A stretch of 64,000 nucleotides of DNA from an uncultured Clostridia bacterium (GTDB lineage: Bacteria > Bacillota > Clostridia > TANB77 > CAG-508): NCBI GenBank assembly GCA_904378095.1, contig CAJFHE010000001.1:12018-76017 (forward strand), written 5' to 3'. Below the pieces are notes generated by a model. The model did no database searches. It was not told where the DNA came from and was given only the letters and a program-made list of their open reading frames with translations. The translations under genes and the position numbers were made by a program. Positions 9,834 to 55,817 of the stretch are shown here, piece by piece. Position 1 is the first letter of the stretch, and each line of letters starts with the position of its first letter.

Positions 9834-10283
9834 TTATGCAGTAACTTTAGAGTCTGCACTGATTTTTCTTACTACTGCCTTAACGCCATCGATTTCTACA
9901 ATTTCAACCTCTGTTTCTTTTGATATAACTTCATCTGTATTGGACTTGGCTGACCAAACTTCGCCATCTACCTTGATTTGTCCATCACCTTCAACATTGT
10001 TGATTTCTTTAACAACGATAGCTTTTTTGCCAATTATTGAATATGCATTTGTTACAGTTTCTTTTGGAACTTTTATAAATTTATTTACAAGTGGTCTTGT
10101 AAATATCAAAAGTAAAGTTGAAGTTACAACAAAAACTATTACTTGTATCAAAATGCTATCAGTTATAAAGCTTGTAACCATTGCAAGTAAAGCGCCTATA
10201 CCAAGCCAAAAAACTAAAAATCCTATAGTTGCCATTTCAATTATGAAAAATACTCCAGCAGCTATTAACCAAAACACCCACAT
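9834..10283 (-). CDS. NfeD-family membrane protein
   Basis: 149 aa with three N-terminal TM segments and a C-terminal OB-like domain (GDGQIKVDGEVWSAKS). Paired with the SPFH gene. Confidence 0.8.
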   Translation of the reverse strand: MWVFWLIAAGVFFIIEMATIGFLVFWLGIGALLAMVTSFITDSILIQVIVFVVTSTLLLIFTRPLVNKFIKVPKETVTNAYSIIGKKAIVVKEINNVEGDGQIKVDGEVWSAKSNTDEVISKETEVEIVEIDGVKAVVRKISADSKVTA

Positions 10284-38762: not shown

Positions 38763-38889
38763 CATAAAATTTTGTTCAAAAAAATGGCAAAATAAAAAAC
38801 AAAAAAAATCACATAATAATATTGAAAAAAATATAGGTTCCATTAAACCATTTTTTCAATTTAAAAATTAATGGAGAAAGGTGATTTTT

Positions 38890-39993
38890 ATGACAAAGAA
38901 GATATTAAGTGTTATAGCAATTGTTGCTTTAATATTTTGTACTTTACAATTTAATGTTTATGCAGCTTCAATTCCATTAAATTCTGTAACAGTTGATGTA
39001 AGCAAAGAAAAAATAGCGCCAGGTGAGGAAGTTACTGTAACAATAAATTTTGGTACAGAGCTTGGAGCATATACATTTGATGTTGCATATGACAACAACA
39101 TTTTTGATTACGTAAGCTCAGAAGGAGGAACGCCAAATGATGATGGTACACGTGTAAGAGTAACATTCTATGACAGTACAGGAGGAACTAACCCACGCTC
39201 TAATATGACAGTTACTTTTAAATCGAAAGACAGCATAGAAGCAACAAATCCAACAGATTTTTCTGTTACAGCAGAAGGTTTGGCAAATAACGATGCATCA
39301 CAGGAATATGATGACATTACTACGCCTATCAAAAAAGATGTAACAGTAGAGCCAAATTATGTGGACTATACAATTAGTTTGAATTATTCTGGAGATGTAA
39401 TTGTAGATGAAGAAAAAGCTATGGAGTTAATTACAGCATCTAGCATGGGAAGAAATTATGACCATGTTAAACTAACAGCAGAAGTTACTAAAAAGCCATC
39501 TGATGCAGCAACTGTTAAATTATTAGCTACAGAAAGAACAAGACAAGAAATTGATTTAATTCAAGATGGATGGGGCGAGCCAGATGGATATGCATTAGGT
39601 GGAAAAGACGTAGAGCAAGTACTAGACATTAGAGGTACATTTAGCGAAATTGGTGCATACACAATAAAAATAAGCTTACTTGATAAAGATAATTCTGATA
39701 GCGTAATTGCAACAAAAGACTTCAATATTAATGTAACAGAAGTTTCATCTGGAAATACTGGAGATGAAGGAAATAATGAAATTCCAGGAGGAGTTACAGA
39801 TAATGAAGAGAACAACAATGTACCTGGAGCATCAGACGAAAACAATCAAAATGGAAATGTAGAAAATGAGGAAGAATTACCAGAAAATCTACCCAAAACT
39901 GGTATGACCCAATATGTATATATAATTACAGCAATTGCTGTTTTGGGAGCAGTATATATATCTTTAAAAAGTGAAAAATCAAAACAAAAATAA
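38890..39993 (+). CDS. LPXTG-anchored surface protein with an N-terminal cohesin-like domain
   Basis: Signal peptide, cohesin-like VTVDVSKEKIAPGEEVTVTINFG...FDVAYD, and C-terminal LPKTG + TM + KSEKSKQK sorting signal. Confidence 0.7.
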   Translation: MTKKILSVIAIVALIFCTLQFNVYAASIPLNSVTVDVSKEKIAPGEEVTVTINFGTELGAYTFDVAYDNNIFDYVSSEGGTPNDDGTRVRVTFYDSTGGTNPRSNMTVTFKSKDSIEATNPTDFSVTAEGLANNDASQEYDDITTPIKKDVTVEPNYVDYTISLNYSGDVIVDEEKAMELITASSMGRNYDHVKLTAEVTKKPSDAATVKLLATERTRQEIDLIQDGWGEPDGYALGGKDVEQVLDIRGTFSEIGAYTIKISLLDKDNSDSVIATKDFNINVTEVSSGNTGDEGNNEIPGGVTDNEENNNVPGASDENNQNGNVENEEELPENLPKTGMTQYVYIITAIAVLGAVYISLKSEKSKQK

Positions 39994-40000
39994 TCTATAA

Positions 40001-40030
40001 AAAGGCGATGAAATAAAAAGCATCGCCTTT
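40001..40030 (+). terminator. intrinsic terminator
   Basis: AAAGGCGATG/CATCGCCTTT stem. Confidence 0.6.
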
Positions 40031-40085
40031 ATGACTATAATTATATGGATTACATATGAGTACACAGAAAGGAAAAAACTAAAAC

Positions 40086-40724
40086 ATGTTTAGAAAATTT
40101 TTAAAATTGCTAATTATTCTTGCAATATCTATTTTGATTGGAAACATGGTATATGGAATGTATCAAGAATTTGAATTAAGCAATGGACCAAGTGTAGTAG
40201 CAGAGCCAAATGACATTTACTTAAATTCAGAAATAGAATTAAATGAGTTGGCAGACAATTTAACTAATAAAACAGCAGAAAACGAAGGGGAGAAATTAAA
40301 TAGAGCATTTGAAAAAATAGATGAAGAGTATAAAGGGTATAAAGTTTCTGCCAAGCTTATAATACCTAAAATAGAGCTAAACACATATGTCCTAGAAAAA
40401 TATGGCACAGACACAATGGAATTATGTCCCACTAAATATTTTGGAGCAGAGCCAAACGAAGCAGGCAACTTTTGCATAGCAGCTCACAACTATAACAAAG
40501 AAAATATGTTTAATCATATTATAGAATTAGAAAAAGGGGACACAATAATACTAATAGATAATAAAAATGGCGAGGTAGAGTACGAGGTATATGATGTGTA
40601 CAAAGTAAAGCCAAATGAAACTGAGCCGCTGTCGCAAAAAACTGAAGGCAGAACAGAGCTTACACTAATTACGTGCAGCGATTATTCAAGTAAGCGAATT
40701 ATTGTGAAAGCTAGAAAAGTTTAG
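40086..40724 (+). CDS. sortase (class not assigned)
   Basis: N-terminal TM, catalytic His region (CIAAHNY), TLITC Cys motif, C-terminal Arg. Confidence 0.8.
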   Translation: MFRKFLKLLIILAISILIGNMVYGMYQEFELSNGPSVVAEPNDIYLNSEIELNELADNLTNKTAENEGEKLNRAFEKIDEEYKGYKVSAKLIIPKIELNTYVLEKYGTDTMELCPTKYFGAEPNEAGNFCIAAHNYNKENMFNHIIELEKGDTIILIDNKNGEVEYEVYDVYKVKPNETEPLSQKTEGRTELTLITCSDYSSKRIIVKARKV

Positions 40725-40739
40725 AAGGAGGTTAGTATT

Positions 40740-43031
40740 TTGAAGAAGAAGATAGTAGTAAGTTTGGGCATAATAGCAACATTTGCTATCATCTTTATAG
40801 TGATATTTACAATATTCAATTCCAATAAAACGGAAAATGCCATAGAGGGAACAAGATTGTCAAATGGCATGCTTCTTTCTAATGCATTTCCAGATATTTA
40901 TCAGCCATATATAGATGAGCTAAAAAAGAAGTATCCAAATTGGGACTTTAAGGCGCTATACACTAACTTAGACTGGAAATATGTAATAGATAATGAGAAC
41001 GTTTTTGGAAAGAATTTAGTACCAAAGTCATATAGTGACAGTTGGAAAAATACTAAACAAGGTGAATACAATGTGGAAGTAGATAGTGGCTGGGTAGATT
41101 CGTCAAGGGCAGCTGTTGAGTTTGCCATGGACCCACGAAATTTCCTAAACTATGTACGTGTGTTTCAATTTGAAGAATTGTCGTATAATTCCAAGACAAA
41201 TACTATTTCCAGTATAGAAAAGATTTTGTATGGTACAGAATTTTACAATAGAATTGTAGAATACAAGAATTCTAGTGGTACAAACATTGTAACAGACAAA
41301 AAATATTCAGATTTGATTCTTTCAGCAGCTAAAACCTCTGGTGTAAGTAGTTTCCATCTTGCTTCAAGAATAAAGCAAGAGGTGGGACCATTTTTGTCCC
41401 ATAGCTCAATTAGCGGAACAGTCTCAGGCTATGAAGGGTTGTACAATTTCTATAACATTGGTGCAACAAGCTCATCAGAGACAATGGGCGCTATAATAAA
41501 TGGGCTTAAATATGCTAAAGATGGAAAAGGTGCTTCTACTGCAATTAAAAATAAGTACCTGATTCCATGGAATACAAAGGAAAGAGCAATTACAGGTGGG
41601 GCAATTTTCATAGGCTCAAGCTATATTAACCAAGGACAAAATTCAATATATCTGCAAAAATTCCATGTTTATGATACTTCAAGTGATGAGTTATTTTGGC
41701 ATCAATATATGACAAATGTGCTTGCACCATATAGTGAGTCAAAATTAATATATAACGGATATTCAAATAGCGGATTGCTAGACTCTTCGATGTCCTTTGT
41801 AATTCCTGTTTATGAAAATATGCCAGATTTGCCTTGTACAAGTCCAGCAATTTCTGCAAGTGATTTTTTGGCAGACAATACCAAGGTATATGCAAATGTG
41901 GAAACAAGCCTAAATGTAAGAACAGGGCCAGGAACTTCTTACGAAACTCTTACAAGCGTGCCAGGAGGAACAACAATGACAAGAATTGCAAAAGGAAAGC
42001 AAAAGGGAGAGTTATGGGATAGAGTGAAATTACAAAACGGTTTAGTGGGATACGTTTTCCAGACATATGTGGAAGAGGTACCTGATGTAGAGGTAGAAAA
42101 AATAGAGCTATCTTTGGACAAAAGCACGATAAATAAAGGAGAAAGAATTAAAATAAAAGCTAAAGTTAGCCCTGATGATGCAGTGGAGAAAAGTTTGAAA
42201 TTCAGCTCAAACAATACAAGTGTTGCAACTGTGAGCTCAGATGGCTATATTTTAGGAGTGGGATCTGGAACAGCTAAAATAACGGCTACTGCTACCAATG
42301 GTGTAAAAAGTGAAATTAGTATAAAGGTATATAGCCCGGTTACAGATTTAGTGGTAAGTACTGAGCATGTTGTACTTCAAGTTGAAGAAAAATTTAAGCT
42401 AAATGTTAGCGTATTGCCAGATGATGCGGATAATAAAAAAGTCACTTTTAAATCGGAAAATGACGGGATAGTAAATGTAGATACAGATGGTGTTTTGACT
42501 GGTATTTCAGAAGGAGACACGAAAGTAAGCATCATGTCTGAGGATAGTGGCATTTCAAAGACAGTCGCAGTAACAGTAATTAGAAAATTAGCAGAGGGAG
42601 AGATAGTATTCGATGAGAGTTTAAATGTGGATGCAAACGAGATAACAGGTTTGGAAAATAAAAATAATACGGTAGACAGCATTTTGCAGAAAATAAAGAC
42701 AAATTATACTGTAGAAATATACAACTCAGCTGGCAAAAAAATAGAAGGTAGTGCTTTAGTTGGAACTGGAAGCACGATAAGAATATTGTACAGCAGCAAT
42801 AATACAATAGTTATGGAATATAATGTAATAATGTATGGAGATGTAAATGGAGATGGCAAAATAAACAGTATAGATTTGCTAGTATTACAAAGACATATCC
42901 TAGAAACGCAGAAGCTTGAAGGAGTATTTGTTAAAGCAGGAAATGTAAGAAAGAATGGCAAAAATCCAAGCTCTGTGGATTGTTTGTTAATACAAAGACA
43001 TATACTTGGATTGCAAAGTATAGAGCAATAA
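40740..43031 (+). CDS. multidomain peptidoglycan hydrolase: GH73 glucosaminidase, SH3b, 2x Big_2, dockerin
   Basis: TM/signal anchor, glucosaminidase region (HLASRIKQEVG...YNFYNIGA), SH3b (NVRTGPGTSY), two Big_2 repeats, and C-terminal DVNGDGKINSIDLLVLQRHIL plus a degenerate second dockerin segment. Confidence 0.75.
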   Translation: MKKKIVVSLGIIATFAIIFIVIFTIFNSNKTENAIEGTRLSNGMLLSNAFPDIYQPYIDELKKKYPNWDFKALYTNLDWKYVIDNENVFGKNLVPKSYSDSWKNTKQGEYNVEVDSGWVDSSRAAVEFAMDPRNFLNYVRVFQFEELSYNSKTNTISSIEKILYGTEFYNRIVEYKNSSGTNIVTDKKYSDLILSAAKTSGVSSFHLASRIKQEVGPFLSHSSISGTVSGYEGLYNFYNIGATSSSETMGAIINGLKYAKDGKGASTAIKNKYLIPWNTKERAITGGAIFIGSSYINQGQNSIYLQKFHVYDTSSDELFWHQYMTNVLAPYSESKLIYNGYSNSGLLDSSMSFVIPVYENMPDLPCTSPAISASDFLADNTKVYANVETSLNVRTGPGTSYETLTSVPGGTTMTRIAKGKQKGELWDRVKLQNGLVGYVFQTYVEEVPDVEVEKIELSLDKSTINKGERIKIKAKVSPDDAVEKSLKFSSNNTSVATVSSDGYILGVGSGTAKITATATNGVKSEISIKVYSPVTDLVVSTEHVVLQVEEKFKLNVSVLPDDADNKKVTFKSENDGIVNVDTDGVLTGISEGDTKVSIMSEDSGISKTVAVTVIRKLAEGEIVFDESLNVDANEITGLENKNNTVDSILQKIKTNYTVEIYNSAGKKIEGSALVGTGSTIRILYSSNNTIVMEYNVIMYGDVNGDGKINSIDLLVLQRHILETQKLEGVFVKAGNVRKNGKNPSSVDCLLIQRHILGLQSIEQ

Positions 43032-43055
43032 TCTAAAAAGATAAGGGAGAGTGCA

Positions 43056-44369
43056 ATGAAGAAAAAGTGTATAATTCTTGGTAAATTAATTGTATTTCAA
43101 ATAGTTGTAGTAGCACTTCTGTGCTTGCTAAGTGTGAAAGGTTTTGCAGTAACAGAAATTAATTTAACAGCAAATAAAGATAATGTTGATGTAGGTGAAG
43201 AATTTAGCATAACTGTGAATGAAACTAGTTCAAATATTGCAGCATATACTATATGGATATACTTTGATAGTCAAATGGTAGAATGTGTATCAGCTGCTGA
43301 TAATCTTAATGTGGTAGAAAATAAAGCTATTTACACATGGTTTTCTGAAAATGGCGTCAATGAAGATTTAGATGAATTAGTGCAAATAGAATTTAAAGCA
43401 AAACAAGATGGAGTGGCTTCATTTGCAGCAACTGGTGAATTCTATAACCAAAATGGGGAGCAAATAGATGTAAAATATAATCAGGTAGAAGTAGAAATAG
43501 GCAACTATGTTAATCAATATGCTACAACACAGAATGGTAAAAATGATAGCGAGCAGGCAGAAAAAACAGCAAACAGCAGTAGTGCTAAGTTGGAAATAAT
43601 GAGATTAAATCAGGAAGGAGTGAATCCAGACTTTAATCCTGATATACATGAATATTATTTGATAGTTAATGAAGATACAAAAAAGCTTGATATAACTGCA
43701 GTGCCTGAAAATAGAGAGGCAGAAGTAAAAATAACAGGAAATGATAATTTGAAAAACGGATTAAACAAAATAGAAATCTCGGTTACATCAAAAGATAAAA
43801 CCAGCACAGAAGAATATATTATAAACGTAACTAAAACAGACGATGCAGAAGCGGCAAATGCAGATTTGGAAAAATTAGCAGTAGAGAATTATACGCTTTC
43901 ACCTGATTTTCAGAGTACAGTAACAAATTATACGGTAGAAGTATCAAATGAAGACGAGAATTTGAATATATTAGCCATAGCACAAAAAGAAAATGCAAAA
44001 GTAAAAATAAGTGGAAATCAAAATCTAAAAATAGGACAAAATGAAATTGTAATTACTGTGACAGCACCAAATGGAGCCACAGAAAAAAATTACATTATCA
44101 ATGCATATAGAAGGGGCGAAGCGGAGGAGAACGCATTTAAGCAAGAGCAGCAAAATGCAATAGAGCAAGCAAATGAGATTATGGAGCAAATGGATGAAAA
44201 CGGAAATGGTAATACGCAAGAGACAGGTGAAAAAAGCGAAAACAATGGCATCCAAGATGAAGCAAGGAACGTAGAAGATATGATTTTTATGATTGCTGGC
44301 ATAGTACTGTCAATAATAGTGCTGGGAATTGTAGTTATTAGAATAAGGTCGGGCAAAATCAAAAACTAG
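43056..44369 (+). CDS. membrane-anchored surface protein: cohesin-like domain, 2x cadherin-like beta-sandwich, C-terminal TM
   Basis: Signal peptide, cohesin-like NLTANKDNVDVGEEFSITVN...IWIYFD, two L..L.V....L.P.F....Y.Y repeats and a C-terminal TM helix. Confidence 0.6.
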   Translation: MKKKCIILGKLIVFQIVVVALLCLLSVKGFAVTEINLTANKDNVDVGEEFSITVNETSSNIAAYTIWIYFDSQMVECVSAADNLNVVENKAIYTWFSENGVNEDLDELVQIEFKAKQDGVASFAATGEFYNQNGEQIDVKYNQVEVEIGNYVNQYATTQNGKNDSEQAEKTANSSSAKLEIMRLNQEGVNPDFNPDIHEYYLIVNEDTKKLDITAVPENREAEVKITGNDNLKNGLNKIEISVTSKDKTSTEEYIINVTKTDDAEAANADLEKLAVENYTLSPDFQSTVTNYTVEVSNEDENLNILAIAQKENAKVKISGNQNLKIGQNEIVITVTAPNGATEKNYIINAYRRGEAEENAFKQEQQNAIEQANEIMEQMDENGNGNTQETGEKSENNGIQDEARNVEDMIFMIAGIVLSIIVLGIVVIRIRSGKIKN

Positions 44370-44466: not shown

Positions 44467-45408
44467 ATGGAAAAGGAAGTTTTAATTTTTGGACATAAGA
44501 ATCCAGATACAGATTCTATTACATCTTCAATGGTAATGGAGAACTTGGAGAGAGAATTAGGTAATAAAAATGCAAAAGCAGTTAGAACAGGTGATGTTAA
44601 TAAAGAAACACAGTTCGTTTTAAATTATCTTGATATGGAAGCTCCAGAGCTAATTGGAAATATTAATGATAATCAAGAGGTTATATTAGTAGACCATAAC
44701 GATGCTGCACAATCAGCAGATAATATAGAGCATGCAAAGGTTTTAAAAGTAATAGACCACCATGCTGTAAACTTTACAATTTCAAGCCCTTTATACTATA
44801 GAGCAGAGCCAGTTGGATGTACAGCAACTGTATTGTATGAATTATATAATGAAAAAAGAATAGAAATAACTAATAAAATTGCAACTCTAATGCTTAGCGC
44901 TATTGCTTCTGATACATTGGTATTAAAATCACCAACAACAACAGAAGTTGATAAAAATGCTGTTAGAATGTTAGAGAAAATAGCAGGATTAGACCTTACT
45001 AAATATGGTGTAGATATGTTAAAAGCAGGAACAGACATAAGCGATTTTACACCAGAGCAAGTAATAAATATAGATTCAAAATTATTTGAGCAATCAAATA
45101 AAAAATTCAGAATAGCACAAGTAAACACAGCTGACCTAGACTCTATATTTAAAAATCAATCATATTTCGAGCAAGCAATAAATAACGATATACAAAAAGA
45201 AAACTTAGACTTTTATGTATTTGCTGCAACAGATATAATCAATTCAAATTCAAAAATTATATCACTTGGAAATGATGCACCAGTTGTAGAAAAAGCATTT
45301 GGCGTATCTGTAGATAATCATACAGCAATGCTTGAAAATGTAGTGTCAAGAAAAAAACAAATGCTACCACCAATTTTGGATGCATTGAACAATAATATAA
45401 ATTTATAA
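44467..45408 (+). CDS. ppaC: manganese-dependent inorganic pyrophosphatase (family II, DHH)
   Basis: FGH.NPDTDSI, VDHH and DHHA2-type C-terminus. TTGACT ... TGcTATAAT promoter upstream. Confidence 0.9.
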   Translation: MEKEVLIFGHKNPDTDSITSSMVMENLERELGNKNAKAVRTGDVNKETQFVLNYLDMEAPELIGNINDNQEVILVDHNDAAQSADNIEHAKVLKVIDHHAVNFTISSPLYYRAEPVGCTATVLYELYNEKRIEITNKIATLMLSAIASDTLVLKSPTTTEVDKNAVRMLEKIAGLDLTKYGVDMLKAGTDISDFTPEQVINIDSKLFEQSNKKFRIAQVNTADLDSIFKNQSYFEQAINNDIQKENLDFYVFAATDIINSNSKIISLGNDAPVVEKAFGVSVDNHTAMLENVVSRKKQMLPPILDALNNNINL

Positions 45409-45409
45409 T

Positions 45410-45440
45410 CTTGTTTTTGGGGACGGAGGAAAAAAACAAG
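45410..45440 (+). repeat. 31-nt palindromic element R31, copy 4
   Basis: Exact copy starting 2 nt after the ppaC stop. Confidence 0.95.
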
Positions 45441-45492
45441 ATTCACAATAACGCAGAAAATATAAAACAAATTTAAATATTTTAATAATTTA

Positions 45493-45532
45493 AAAAAATG
45501 AACTAAAACACTTGAATTTTAGTTCATTTTTT
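45493..45532. terminator. bidirectional terminator
   Basis: AAAAAATGAACTAAAA/TTTTAGTTCATTTTTT 16-bp stem. Confidence 0.65.
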
Positions 45533-45563
45533 GATAATATAAATAAGTCAGTAGCAAATATGT

Positions 45564-45646
45564 GCCGATGTGGCGGAACTGGCAGACGCACCAGACTCAA
45601 AATCTGGCGGGAAACCATGTGGGTTCGAGTCCCACCATCGGTACCA
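45564..45646 (+). tRNA. tRNA-Leu (anticodon CAA)
   Basis: Cloverleaf folded by hand: acceptor GCCGATG/CATCGGT, anticodon stem CCAGA/TCTGG with loop CTCAAAA, long variable arm, T-arm GTGGG-TTCGAGT-CCCAC, encoded CCA. Confidence 0.85.
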
Positions 45647-45721
45647 ATGGAAAAACAACTATAAATAGCTTGTATCTGAGAATACAGGCTGTTTTTATGC
45701 TCATGTGAGTGACAAACGAAT

Positions 45722-45804
45722 ATTACAAAAATGTTACAGAAATATTAAAAGAATATTACAAATGAGCTAAAAGGATTGAAAATAATATACTAAAAGGATA
45801 TAAT
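45722..45804 (+). promoter_or_regulatory. promoter of locus B: three (A/G)TTACA boxes, then TTGAAA-17-TATAAT
   Basis: Boxes at 45722, 45733 and 45755 (0, +11, +33). -35 at 45776-45781 and -10 at 45799-45804. Same architecture as locus A. Confidence 0.6.
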
Positions 45805-45873
45805 TGATTTGTACTTATGGTTAAATAAAATGCAGAAGCAAATAAAGTAAAAAAAGGAAGAAAGTGGGAAAAC

Positions 45874-45954
45874 ATGAAAAAAACGAAAACCTTGGAAAGC
45901 ACTGATATACTAGAGAGAGAGAGAGAGAGAGAGAGCTACATCCTAGAAAAGTAG
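45874..45954 (+). other. 26-codon leader ORF containing (AG)12; encodes an ERERERE repeat
   Basis: ATG at 45874. The stop lies in AAGTAGGCTTT, homologous to the locus A leader stop. Confidence 0.25.
45912..45935. repeat. dinucleotide microsatellite (AG)12
   Basis: Uninterrupted agagag... run counted directly. Confidence 0.95.
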
Positions 45955-46078
45955 GCTTTATTTGTGATGCAAAAACTAACTGCAATGCAAGCATAAAAAA
46001 CAGTAAAAAATTAGCAAAAAAAGAATATATAATAAAAAAATGGGTAGACTATGGAAAGCAAGAAAAAGCGAGAAATAG

Positions 46079-46951
46079 TCTGCCTTTTTATATTCTATAG
46101 AAGCAAGAAAAAACACACCAGTATCAGATGACCAAGGAAATACAGTAGTAATACCAGGAGGATTCCATTTAGATGAAGATAGTGGAACGAGTGTAGAAGA
46201 AGGAATAGTAATAGAAGATGGTAGTGGTAACCAATTTGTATGGATACCAACAGGAACATACAATGTAACCGAGGCAGTGGATAATGATGGAACAAAAGAT
46301 GGAAAACTAACAAATAATTTAAGTAGAAGAACATTTACAGACACAGGAGCAACAGAGGTAAGTGGAGATAATGTAATTGAAGATTACTTTTATGGAGAAG
46401 GAGATAGTCGTTCAGTAGCATATTCACAAATAGGAGCATTTAAAGACAGTGTAAGTAAAAATGGTGGATTCTATATTGGTAGATACGAATTAGGTACAGG
46501 AAATGTAGTAAAAGCGGGAGTAGCTCCATATACAAATATAACAAGAGATACAGCAAAAAGTCAGATAGAGGCGATGTATAGTGGAAATGGTTATGTAACA
46601 AGTGAGTTAATAAGTAGTTATGCATGGGATACAGCATTAAACTTCATATGTCAAACAAATATTGCAGGATATACATTAGCTAGAACAACAAGTAGTAGTT
46701 ACGGTAATATATATACAGGAAGTAGGCAAAATACAGGAGCATATGAAGCAGATAATTATAGTAATATCCATGATTTACTAGGTAATTGTAGAGAATGGAC
46801 TACAGAGTACTTTAGTCGTAGCTACGGTCCTTGCGTGTCTATGGGTGGCAATTACAGCACCGGCCTCTACTACGCAGCCGTTCGTAGCAACAGCAGTACG
46901 AGCTATTCCAACGATGACATCTCAGCCCGTGCCCAGCTTTATTTAAAGTAG
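46079..46951 (+). pseudogene. FGE-sulfatase / C-type-lectin-fold protein lacking an in-frame N-terminus, with a DGR-VR-like 3' end
   Basis: The frame is open from 46079 with no ATG (first start-like codon is GTG 46277). GGFYIGRYE and HDLLGNCREWTTE are SUMF1/FGE-like motifs. The last 126 nt are compositionally aberrant. Confidence 0.65.
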
Positions 46952-47174
46952 TTCTGTAACCTGCAAAAAAATAGAGAAGATGAACAAAAGAGAAAATTGG
47001 TAAAAGTAGTTGCATTAAAACATGCGTGTTTATGAGATAATAAACATGTAAAAAATATAGCATAAAGACCTTGCCAAGGAAAAACAAGCGGTGTATAATA
47101 TGTGTGTAATAACATTATATTATTCACCGCTTTGCTAATAAGAGTAGCTAAAAGTATAGCTAAAGGAGATAGCC

Positions 47175-48440
47175 ATGGATATTACTAAAGCTAAAGAAAT
47201 AAATGTAAATTTATATACCAGATACAAAATGCTGTCATGGGATTTGCTTTTTTACTATGCTATCATTTTCTTGTTTTTTACTCAAACCAAAGGCATAAGT
47301 GCAGCGGATGTGCTACTTGCGGAGTCTTTTTATCCTATTTTTAAAATTATCTTTCTTATTCCGGCAACTATTCTAATTGATTCATTAGGTAAGAGAAAGA
47401 GTTTAATTATAGGCAACTTTTTCTTATTCTTGTCAATTTTGACATATATAATTGGATTAAATTTTGTTTTTATAGTTGTAGGGGAGTTATTTTCTGCAGT
47501 AGGCTTCATCATAAAAGGTGTATGTGAGTCTAATATGATTTATGACTCTCTTGAAAAAGATGAAAAAAGAGGTACAAGATTTGCAAAAATAGAGGGAAAA
47601 GGTACGTCATACTATTATTACATAGATGCAGTTTCATCAGTGATTGCAGGTTTATTGTTTTCTATAAATGGCTATATTCCAATGATTTTGTGCTTGATTT
47701 GTACTGCTATTTCGCTATATCTTTCTACTAAATTTAAGGATATAGATGAAAAGCACAAGGTAGATAAATATAAAATATATAAAGAATGCAAGGATTTGTT
47801 TAATTCATTTAAGCTATTTGGAAAGTCTCCAAGACTTAAAAATTTGATATTCTTTGGTGCGTTAATTTCAGCAATAATACTATCTTTAACAATGCTTAGA
47901 AGCAGCATTATGCAAGATATTGGCATACCTTCTGAATATTTTGGAATTATTTTTGCGGTACTTGGGCTTGTTTCTGGAATTGCTGCAAAAAATGAAAATA
48001 GATTCCACAAGAAGTTTCGCAACAGAACTCTTACAAGTCTAGCAATTCCTTTGGTGTTTTCATGCATTGTTATAGGTGTTTTTTGTAGTGCAAATTTAGG
48101 ATACGGAGCTAATGTGGCTGTGGTGTTAATGGCATTTTTAGTGCAATACATTGCAAGGGGACCATTTTATCCATTAATAAAACAATACATGAATAATTTT
48201 ACAACCGCAAGTTTACGCAATAAAATATCATCATCGTTTAATTTACTAGAAAATATTTTAAGATTTTTGATAACATTTGCAGCATCAAATTTACTTAGAG
48301 TAACGACCACAGCCAATACATTTACTGTGCTTGGTTGCATATTGAGTATTATTGTTGTGCTTATGCTAGACAACATGAAGAAAAAGGTAGGGTTAAAGCC
48401 AGAGCAGTATTCGAGCAGAGATACAAAAATATTGTTGTAA
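47175..48440 (+). CDS. MFS-type transporter
   Basis: 421 aa with about 12 TM helices in a 6+6 layout and a central charged loop. Confidence 0.7.
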   Translation: MDITKAKEINVNLYTRYKMLSWDLLFYYAIIFLFFTQTKGISAADVLLAESFYPIFKIIFLIPATILIDSLGKRKSLIIGNFFLFLSILTYIIGLNFVFIVVGELFSAVGFIIKGVCESNMIYDSLEKDEKRGTRFAKIEGKGTSYYYYIDAVSSVIAGLLFSINGYIPMILCLICTAISLYLSTKFKDIDEKHKVDKYKIYKECKDLFNSFKLFGKSPRLKNLIFFGALISAIILSLTMLRSSIMQDIGIPSEYFGIIFAVLGLVSGIAAKNENRFHKKFRNRTLTSLAIPLVFSCIVIGVFCSANLGYGANVAVVLMAFLVQYIARGPFYPLIKQYMNNFTTASLRNKISSSFNLLENILRFLITFAASNLLRVTTTANTFTVLGCILSIIVVLMLDNMKKKVGLKPEQYSSRDTKILL

Positions 48441-54916: not shown

Positions 54917-55390
54917 ATGAAAAACTTTTCTAGTTGGTTAATAGCAATTTTTGCTTTTATGTTTTGGGCATTCAGGTTAGTAGGAACTGCATTAAATTCA
55001 GTAGGTATTGATTTTATGTTTGTACCTTCAAATATGACTATGGAGATAGTATTATTATTCATAACATTTATTTGTATATGTTTTATGGTAAAAAGAAAAT
55101 TGTTGGCTGCAGTAATTTATTTAGTGTGTCATTTTGCATACTATGGTCCAACATTTATAGAGCATTTTATGGGAATAATAAATCAGACATTACCTATGGA
55201 AATGTATATGACTACATTATTTGAAATGTTTGCATTAGTATTGGCTATTGCAGCTGTATTTGATGTTCTATTAGATAAAAACAGAAAAGCACATCCAACT
55301 GACAAGAAAACTGACTGGTTTTATACAAACAAAGATTATGATAGAAAACTAGATGAGAGAGCTGACAAGAATAATTATAGAACGCTATAA
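54917..55390 (+). CDS. four-TM membrane protein, function unknown
   Basis: 157-aa ORF with an AGGAGGAAG RBS. Confidence 0.5.
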   Translation: MKNFSSWLIAIFAFMFWAFRLVGTALNSVGIDFMFVPSNMTMEIVLLFITFICICFMVKRKLLAAVIYLVCHFAYYGPTFIEHFMGIINQTLPMEMYMTTLFEMFALVLAIAAVFDVLLDKNRKAHPTDKKTDWFYTNKDYDRKLDERADKNNYRTL

Positions 55391-55435
55391 TTTGAAATAT
55401 ATTTTAACTTAATTAGTGAAATACTGGGGACAGAC

Positions 55436-55458
55436 TTACATCTGTCCCTGAATTTCAC
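55436..55458. repeat. GGGGACAGA-N6-TCTGTCCC hairpin (GAC-hairpin family)
   Basis: Read directly, 3' of the membrane-protein gene. Confidence 0.85.
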
Positions 55459-55511
55459 AAGGCGAGAAAATTATTACATATTTTAGTTTAAAATAGTAAA
55501 GGAGGTAAAGA

Positions 55512-55817
55512 ATGGCCAAGGATTTGATGATTAGAAGTAGTAGTGCTGAATTCTTAATTTTTGAAAGACAAACTCATAATAAAGGAATACAAGTTAGATT
55601 TGAAAATGGCGATTTATGGTTGACTCAAAAAGCAATGGCAGAACTGTATAACTGTTCACCTGATAATATAGGATTACACTTAAAAAATATTTATAATGAT
55701 TTAGAACTTGATAGAAATTCAACTACCGAGGATTTCTCGGTAGTTCAAAACGAAGGAACAAGAGAAGTTACTAGAAAATTAAAATATTGTATAAATCGGA
55801 TTTTGATTTATTGTTAG
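55512..55817 (+). pseudogene. RhuM-family protein, 3'-truncated (N-terminal ~90 aa only)
   Basis: IQVRFENGDLWLTQKAMAELY......I..HLKNIY...EL matches the RhuM N-terminus. It ends abruptly (..RKLKY then CINRILIYC*), where full-length members continue for more than 200 aa. Confidence 0.55.

Follow-up and report, generated by a model that had tools for sequence, protein, structure and literature searches.

Within the 64-kb stretch of DNA analysed here, which comes from an uncultured Clostridia bacterium (contig CAJFHE010000001.1) and is called the window below, the forward-strand open reading frame (ORF) 46079-46951 ends in a G+C-rich run of NNC and NNT codons (coordinates are positions in the window unless another contig is named). 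The question raised by this locus is whether a diversity-generating retroelement (DGR) has written the run and, if it has, whether the gene is still a target. A preliminary description had taken 46814-46939 to be a DGR variable region (VR) in a current, fossil or orphaned target. We found that the patch is a genuine DGR-written VR, and we further consider it probable that this VR is orphaned and frozen, lying in a 5'-truncated, probably non-functional target gene of pilin-like lectin-fold type.

The composition of the patch sets it apart from its surroundings. Positions 46814-46939 hold 39 C, 31 G, 29 T and 27 A, i.e., 70 of 126 nt are G+C (55.6%), and the 42 codons end in C (22), T (14), G (4) or A (2); the hand counts previously made for G+C, for A and for C- and A-ending codons were reproduced exactly. 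The remaining frame (46079-46813) has 34% G+C and third positions with A126, T87, C17 and G15, and C-ending codons are over-represented in the patch (Fisher p = 1.5e-11). Across the window, with an overall G+C of 30.7%, the top 126-nt G+C span lies within the patch (0.556 against a mean of 0.307, standard deviation 0.056), a G+C of 0.50 or more is reached at just two further sites, one of which is the tRNA-Leu gene, and the composition boundary around 46780-46815 is abrupt.

A protein search with the ORF returned 4,075 homolog matches; 137 family proteins were retrieved for comparison, and the ungapped VRs of 65 relatives were analysed. Full-length members of this family are ~380-500 aa long and carry a C-terminal FGE/C-type-lectin domain, many of them begin with a prepilin-like leader and helix (e.g., KERGITLVALVITIIIIIILAT), and some have an fn3 domain ahead of the lectin-fold domain. 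The pilin-type N-terminus GITLVALVITIIIIIILAT is found in full-length relatives, one of which is named pseudopilin PulG by JGI, and the N-terminus of the family gives a weak Geopilin match (E = 0.27). Their last ~45 residues follow the scaffold EWTTEY.S.S..PCV.RGG.Y..S..YAA.R....TS.S....SFR.QLYVK, in which the dotted positions are hypervariable. For the window copy, the AlphaFold model of the 46106-46948 product (61 homologs) reached a pLDDT of 95.3 and a pTM of 0.94, with strands in residues 4-53, and Foldseek matched it to PvdO, FGE, Mtd, TaqVP and TvpA (E = 5e-6 to 3e-4, TM-scores 0.31-0.50), with sequence identity to those structures of just 11-17%. The Pfam family FGE-sulfatase (PF03781) was matched below threshold over residues 210-252 only (18.9 bits versus a cut-off of 23.3, E = 1.3e-3), and the family profile matched human SUMF2 (E = 1.7e-3) over the DLLGNxxEWT motif, which agrees with the FGE-sulfatase profile. 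The FGE/C-type-lectin fold suggested earlier for the ORF was confirmed in this way at the level of the predicted structure. NCBIfam gave no match for the two family members scanned, tblastn of the domain against plasmids and phages gave no matches, and a protein search of viral contigs found only two 29%-identical loci, both without a reverse transcriptase (RT). From the lack of plasmid and phage matches we take the family to be chromosomal and not phage-borne, in line with the published rule by which DGRs with remote targets are of the non-phage kind (PMC5758913).

The machinery that diversifies the family was found in relatives. A homolog (P0127) that is 73% identical over the lectin-fold domain (tblastn) occurs on contigs L139 and L140, where the order is target, 150-aa MutS_I-domain ORF, bAvd, 335-aa RVT_1 RT and template repeat (TR), the last being a 150-nt repeat of the VR. 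The Avd of this cassette is matched by NCBIfam DivGenRetAVD (E = 1.8e-20), and its RT carries the motifs IGNYTSQ...YLDD (IGxxxSQ type) and shares 35-39% identity with those of crAss-like phages and of Bacillus phage BalMu-1; Bordetella phage records match it as well. The TR (L139:11398-11547) has a 136-nt core (GTACTCTAGCAATAGCAATAATCCTTGCGTGAATAGGGGAGGCAATTACAACAATAGCAATAACTACGCAGCTAATCGCAACAACAACAATACGAGCAATTCCAATGACAACATCTCATTCAGGTCTCAGCT) with 40% A (54 adenines and 82 other sites), 40% G+C and 17 AAY codons. Over this core, the VR of L139 differs from the TR by 29 changes at TR adenines and 0 elsewhere, that of L141 by 31 and 0, and that of L013 by 31 and 1. Moreover, one cluster at 90% identity contains 15 proteins with 13 different VRs, the proteins being otherwise identical or nearly so (two or three of the 15 have scattered substitutions outside the VR). 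Each of the 17 columns that are Asn in the TR shows 11-16 residue types over the 65 relatives, and K, Q, E, M and W, which are unreachable from AAY by adenine-only change, make up 1.4% of the residues there. The family is a DGR target family. Because L013 has a TR139-type VR with no RT or TR within 10 kb, and L141 has one with no RT on 19.2 kb (~8 kb on the upstream and 10 kb on the downstream side of the gene), the DGR, as judged from these sequences, acts in trans within the family. Further family copies stand alone in unrelated housekeeping contexts, and no RT or TR was found beside P0050, P0014 and P0003 (the '...SARAQLY.K' sub-lineage) or beside P0001, P0021, P0034 and P0068.

Two side observations concern these relatives. 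On L141, the target is followed by a shortened MutS_I ORF and then by a second TR-like repeat (10118-10267), and neither bAvd nor RT occurs on the 19 kb compared. This repeat differs from the L139 TR at 17 non-adenine positions, and the adjacent VR of L141 fits the L139-type TR, with 0 non-adenine mismatches, and not its neighbour. The second observation is that the prepilin-like leader ORF (...GITLVALVITIIVIIILSTVTISTVFRR*) of five contigs is offset by one base from the frame of the main target ORF (FGDDGIIKK...); the site (ACAGTATTTCGGAGAT) is identical in all five, lying within 7579-7800 of L139 and recurring in L140, L141, L013 and L014. The VRs of these five frame-broken genes are still actively diversified, and the offset may have been inherited as a frameshift, may be programmed, or may mark the boundary of separate ORFs.

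With this TR at hand, the patch in the window can be read directly. Positions 46799-46948 align to the L139 TR (L139:11398-11547) gaplessly and codon for codon, and the TR-type homology defines the VR as 46803..46938 on the forward strand (54% G+C), close to the location first proposed near the 3' end of the ORF. All 17 TR AAY codons read NNY in the window VR (17/17, p about 5e-7), at the codons starting at 46817, 46823, 46826, 46838, 46850, 46856, 46859, 46865, 46868, 46880, 46886, 46889, 46892, 46895, 46904, 46910 and 46916, and none of the residues there is unreachable from AAY. Changes are concentrated at adenines (24/54 adenines changed vs 15/82 other sites, p = 0.002). The patch owes its composition to the TR, since the AAY codons keep their third base C or T while the adenines are replaced by any base. 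The claim that the patch is a DGR VR is therefore borne out by the cassette and TR in the family, by the adenine-only differences of the family VRs and by the 17/17 NNY codons in the window.

The 15 non-adenine differences describe the source of the VR more closely. Ten of them are at third positions, nine of these being C/T transitions, and the rest are clustered in the last codons (TTC AGG TCT vs GCC CGT GCC). A 3' signature, 'SAR.Q[LI]Y', is present in 14 of the 137 retrieved proteins, including three of the cluster to which this locus belongs, and points to a putative separate TR sub-lineage. Since 15 of the 82 non-adenine sites differ, the L139 TR is a relative and not the cognate TR of the window VR, and we infer that the latter would have been written by a diverged relative of it.

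The gene that carries this VR is incomplete. Homology to family genes begins only at 46106 (blastn), and the coding remnant (46106..46951, forward strand), delimited by homology, AlphaFold, Foldseek and the ORF list, consists of the FGE/C-type-lectin-fold domain and a stop; its DNA identity is 85.6% to L011 and 72-77% to L139, L141, L013 and L015 (blastn). The frame is open from 46079, directly behind an in-frame TAG (46076-46078), to the stop codon 46949-46951, the last base of which lies 13 nt beyond the VR end at 46938. No start codon stands ahead of the conserved domain; the first possible one is GTG 46277, and a product from there would begin only ~57 residues into the modelled fold and would have no signal or leader. 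The basic leader and G-hydrophobic helix of the prepilin N-terminus (class III signal) are missing from the window copy. In place of the ~900 nt that encode the prepilin-like leader and the middle domain in relatives, the window has a junction segment of ~300 nt (45805..46105, forward strand) without homology to the full-length genes; its local matches to L139, L013 and L141 are no longer than 23-25 nt and at chance level. We had considered ATG 46040 (MGRLWKARKSEK) as the original pilin-leader start and dropped it, because 45805-46105 has no significant homology to full-length genes. One further lesion lies inside the VR: a Met codon (ATG, 46841..46843, forward strand) stands where the scaffold has the Arg of its C-V-x-R-G-G motif (TR codon AGG). 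This Arg is present in 60 of the 65 ungapped family VRs and Met only in three proteins of the cluster of this locus; the replacement goes back to a G-to-T change at a site where the TR has no adenine, and may be read as decay after homing.

Both flanks retain traces of the ancestral full-length gene. Upstream of the junction, a conserved element (45713..45804, forward strand) has 80-82% identity to regions upstream of full-length family genes (L139 7234-7316, L141 7395-7482, L013 9457-9521; blastn), its counterpart sitting a few hundred nt upstream of those genes. A sigma-70-like promoter match at 45776-45804 (score 11/12 in the promoter scan) suggests that this part may act as a promoter; the 90-nt element as a whole could be a promoter or leader of the family. 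An Rfam scan of 45400-47300 returned the tRNA as its sole match and nothing for the element. Downstream, a tail (46952..47050, forward strand; blastn) is homologous to what follows the target genes of the family on their 3' side: the alignments with L139 and L141 extend to 46987-46996, and L011 is matched over 24 nt at 47027-47050. In relatives the TR-VR homology stops at CAGCT, and the identical boundary sequence is present in the window; folding of the 130 nt 3' of the VR gave no convincing hairpin (z = -0.46 vs shuffles), and the relatives gave mixed results. The tRNA-Leu (CAA) gene (45564..45646, forward strand; ARAGORN; Rfam tRNA 57.9 bits) forms the left edge of the intergenic space that contains the remnant, and after the remnant there follow a promoter-like site and then an MFS transporter gene. 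An (AG)12 microsatellite (45913-45936) lies between tRNA-Leu and the remnant, with one AG unit fewer in 4 of 10 other strains.

The window itself holds no DGR machinery. A motif scan and tblastn (E<=10) over its 64 kb found no RT, Avd or MutS-like ORF, and neither a TR-like copy nor a second family copy is present in it, which agrees with the earlier statement that RT, Avd and a TR near-copy are absent from it. From the window VR we predicted the sequence of its TR as CCTTGCGTGAATATGGGWGGCAATTACAACAACAGCAACAACTACGCAGCCAATCGTAACAACAACAATACGAGCAATTCCAACGATAACATCTCAGCCMGTGCCCAGCT. Patterns of this predicted TR with the non-adenine bases fixed had 0 matches in viral contigs, and the specific and family-wide patterns had 0 matches each in JGI metagenomes.

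Population evidence indicates that the VR does not change. The exact 224-aa product is encoded on 31 contigs, and two more members of its cluster (three contigs) have the same VR, for a total of 34 contigs that include strains with differing flanking genes. The cluster has four members, and the one divergent member is P0123. Ten loci from ten samples share the context of DHH gene, tRNA-Leu, remnant and MFS gene; among these ten strains, the genes nearby vary at 5-28 sites per 500 nt, and no site varies in 45777-46776 or in 45916-47074. The hypervariability confined to the VR is therefore seen in relatives (13 VRs in 15 proteins) and not at the window locus. P0123 is encoded on contig L145 (1-1680, 3.9x coverage; corresponding to ~45487-46816 and beyond), which carries the truncated locus and is identical over 46190-46779. 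Beyond 46779 it has a different, A+T-rich 3' end (39% G+C) with K/Q/M residues, followed by unrelated downstream DNA, and its first differences lie ~20-25 nt upstream of the VR 5' boundary. Another member of the cluster, P0122, has the same VR and, at residues ~129-146, the patch IAGYTLARTTSSSYGNIY replaced by EEGYLLARTNDSTYGNIN, which suggests possible gene conversion between family paralogs.

Taken together, we propose that a DGR target gene once lay in the chromosome at this place and has decayed to the remnant at 45713-47050. Its ancestral product would have been a surface protein built of a prepilin-type leader with a hydrophobic helix, a middle domain that is fn3-like in some relatives, and a lectin-fold domain, the VR being the last ~45 codons of this C-terminal FGE/C-type-lectin domain. 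A cassette with MutS-like, bAvd, RT and TR components would reverse-transcribe the TR with adenine-specific errors, and the cDNA would overwrite the VR, also at target copies distant from the RT. Adenine replacement would have lifted the G+C from ~40% in the TR to ~54% in the window VR and left the NNC/NNT run. The window copy would then have lost its 5' coding part and kept a piece of the upstream region, making a full protein impossible; rewriting of the VR would have ceased, and the last written version would have become fixed in the population. The TR that presumably wrote it, a diverged one, is now unseen, and we infer that the system is inactive at this locus today. We regard the copy as a relic because it has no start, its leader and middle domain are gone, the scaffold Arg has become Met, the same VR is found on 34 contigs, and RT, Avd, MutS-like gene and TR are all absent from the window. 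Of the three states that the preliminary description had left side by side, a fossil or orphaned target is thus favoured by the 5' truncation and the identical VR on 34 contigs, and a current target is less favoured.

Several points weigh against an orphaned and frozen VR. The cognate TR was found neither in the window nor in viral contigs or JGI metagenomes, and a TR and RT elsewhere in the source genome are possible. The ten loci were picked by exact identity of the 224-aa product and are biased to an invariant VR, so the strain comparison proposed earlier, although it was run on ten strains and showed no variable site in the remnant, compares loci retrieved by protein identity, and only the cluster listing (one divergent of four members) informs on other alleles. 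The absence of single-nucleotide polymorphisms (SNPs) extends to silent and intergenic sites and could reflect a recent sweep or transfer, not long inactivity. L145 shows either that the 3' part has been exchanged at least once or that the contig is chimeric. The VR might instead be a live remote target, rewritten in trans by a DGR cassette elsewhere in the chromosome despite the truncation. This would agree with the trans action in the family (L013 and L141), with the documented remote targets of non-phage DGRs at distances of >100 kb (PMC5758913), with the conservation of the VR 3' end (CAGCTTTAT.TAAAGTAG) and of ~45 nt of downstream flank with active copies, and with a genome that extends beyond the 64-kb window and may hold the cassette. 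We nevertheless consider it unlikely, since a single VR recurs on 34 contigs that represent many samples and several haplotypes of the flanks, where an active relative has 13 VRs in 15 proteins; in addition, 15 non-adenine sites separate the window VR from the nearest known TR, the scaffold Arg was lost by a non-adenine change, and the predicted TR is missing from the viral and JGI metagenome collections.

It is also conceivable, though we give it little credence, that the truncated copy has a use of its own, either as a stand-alone lectin-fold protein made from GTG 46277 or as a silent VR cassette that donates to full-length pilin-like paralogs by gene conversion. In Neisseria, pilS copies donate to pilE by gene conversion. 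N-terminally short copies do recur at unrelated chromosomal sites (P0001, P0003, P0012, P0048, P0068), mosaic patches occur (P0122 has the same VR and another upstream patch, L145 the same 5' part and another 3' end), the promoter-like upstream element is retained at the locus, and zero SNPs are seen over the remnant in the ten strains. However, the stand-alone product would lack ~57 residues of a confidently modelled fold together with any signal or leader, no full-length paralog with the window VR was present among the 137 proteins retrieved, and the short copies may simply have arisen by decay or from faulty gene calls on short contigs. We rejected the SNP-free remnant as evidence of selection, because SNPs are likewise absent from other 500-nt intervals and the sampling was biased; the invariance of silent and intergenic sites argues for recent common descent over selection. 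An improbable and more far-reaching version is that the truncated copy is a silent store of DGR-written VR, with gene conversion exchanging 3' cassettes between the short copies and expressed pilin-like paralogs, or that it is still rewritten in trans. If true, retroelement hypermutation would be coupled to an archive for antigenic variation in the style of pilS/pilE. Finally, the patch might have nothing to do with DGRs and be a tract recombined from a high-G+C donor, or chance composition, and the sharp boundary at ~46780-46815, where the L145 allele also breaks, speaks for this. We hold this to be very improbable and have rejected the donor tract: the homologous VRs measured in five other family loci, in genomes of ~30-34% G+C, form the same patch with 45-51% G+C, a TR with adenine-only differences to family VRs exists and explains the composition, the window VR follows this TR codon for codon with 17/17 NNY, and the excess of C-ending codons (p = 1.5e-11) speaks against chance. 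A donor tract had been named at the outset as one finding that would overturn the DGR interpretation, and the relatives' VRs speak against it. An orphaned, frozen VR in a truncated gene therefore stays our preferred reading.

Remote targets, MSL-type cassettes (MSL, MutS-like) and lectin-fold VRs are already established. The Treponema denticola DGR, for example, has seven further tvpA-like genes as remote targets, and 73 non-adjacent targets have been catalogued (Wu et al. 2018, PMC5758913). The window VR resembles them in its position at the 3' end of an FGE/C-type-lectin domain, in the lack of a nearby RT or TR, in its chromosomal family and in having relatives served in trans; it differs in that no cognate TR was found for it, its gene is 5'-truncated and the VR is invariant, which is the behaviour of a relic. 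An MSL accessory gene was reported in 16 of 372 DGRs, including the Legionella DGR, and DGRs with MSL also carry avd (PMC5758913). The L139/L140 cassette, with its MutS_I ORF, bAvd, RT and TR, is of this kind, whereas the window is without any component and the cassette is found only in 72-73% identical relatives on other contigs. The predicted fold of the window ORF is that of Mtd (1YU0-4), TvpA (2Y3C), TaqVP (5VF4) and FGE, with the VR likewise in the C-terminal part, and unlike these proteins the full-length relatives add a type IV prepilin-like N-terminus. The full-length relatives are also comparable to the type V pili of Bacteroides in joining a pilin-type N-terminus to a DGR VR; unlike those pili, their N-terminus is of type IV/pseudopilin kind and they belong to low-G+C sporulating gut bacteria, and the window copy is without the pilin part.

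While the window copy is in all likelihood dead and of little biological consequence, its signature may be of practical value, because in an A+T-rich genome DNA written by a DGR can be recognised without an RT or TR where a lectin-fold ORF ends in a run of NNC/NNT codons with a peak of G+C. Such a compositional signature would be useful for annotating orphan and remote targets that are overlooked by RT-centred DGR finders. More interesting than the window copy is the family behind it, a large and barely annotated group (>4,000 matches) of pilin-like, DGR-diversified surface proteins of low-G+C sporulating bacteria known from metagenomes, served by a cassette of Avd, MutS-like protein and RT that acts in trans on scattered copies.

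Some minor observations were made elsewhere in the window. A cluster upstream of the remnant (38881-44369) encodes a cohesin-like protein, a sortase, an SH3_3/Big_2/dockerin protein and a cadherin-like protein, and has the highest steady SNP density between strains in the 20 kb compared (13-25 per 500 nt). SH3_3/dockerin and cadherin-like genes like those of this cluster adjoin the full-length family member in L013. Further downstream, ~55277-55776 contains 104 variable alignment columns in 500 nt across strains; RhuM-family genes are located there in L002, L003 and L005, and a short unannotated ORF in other strains.

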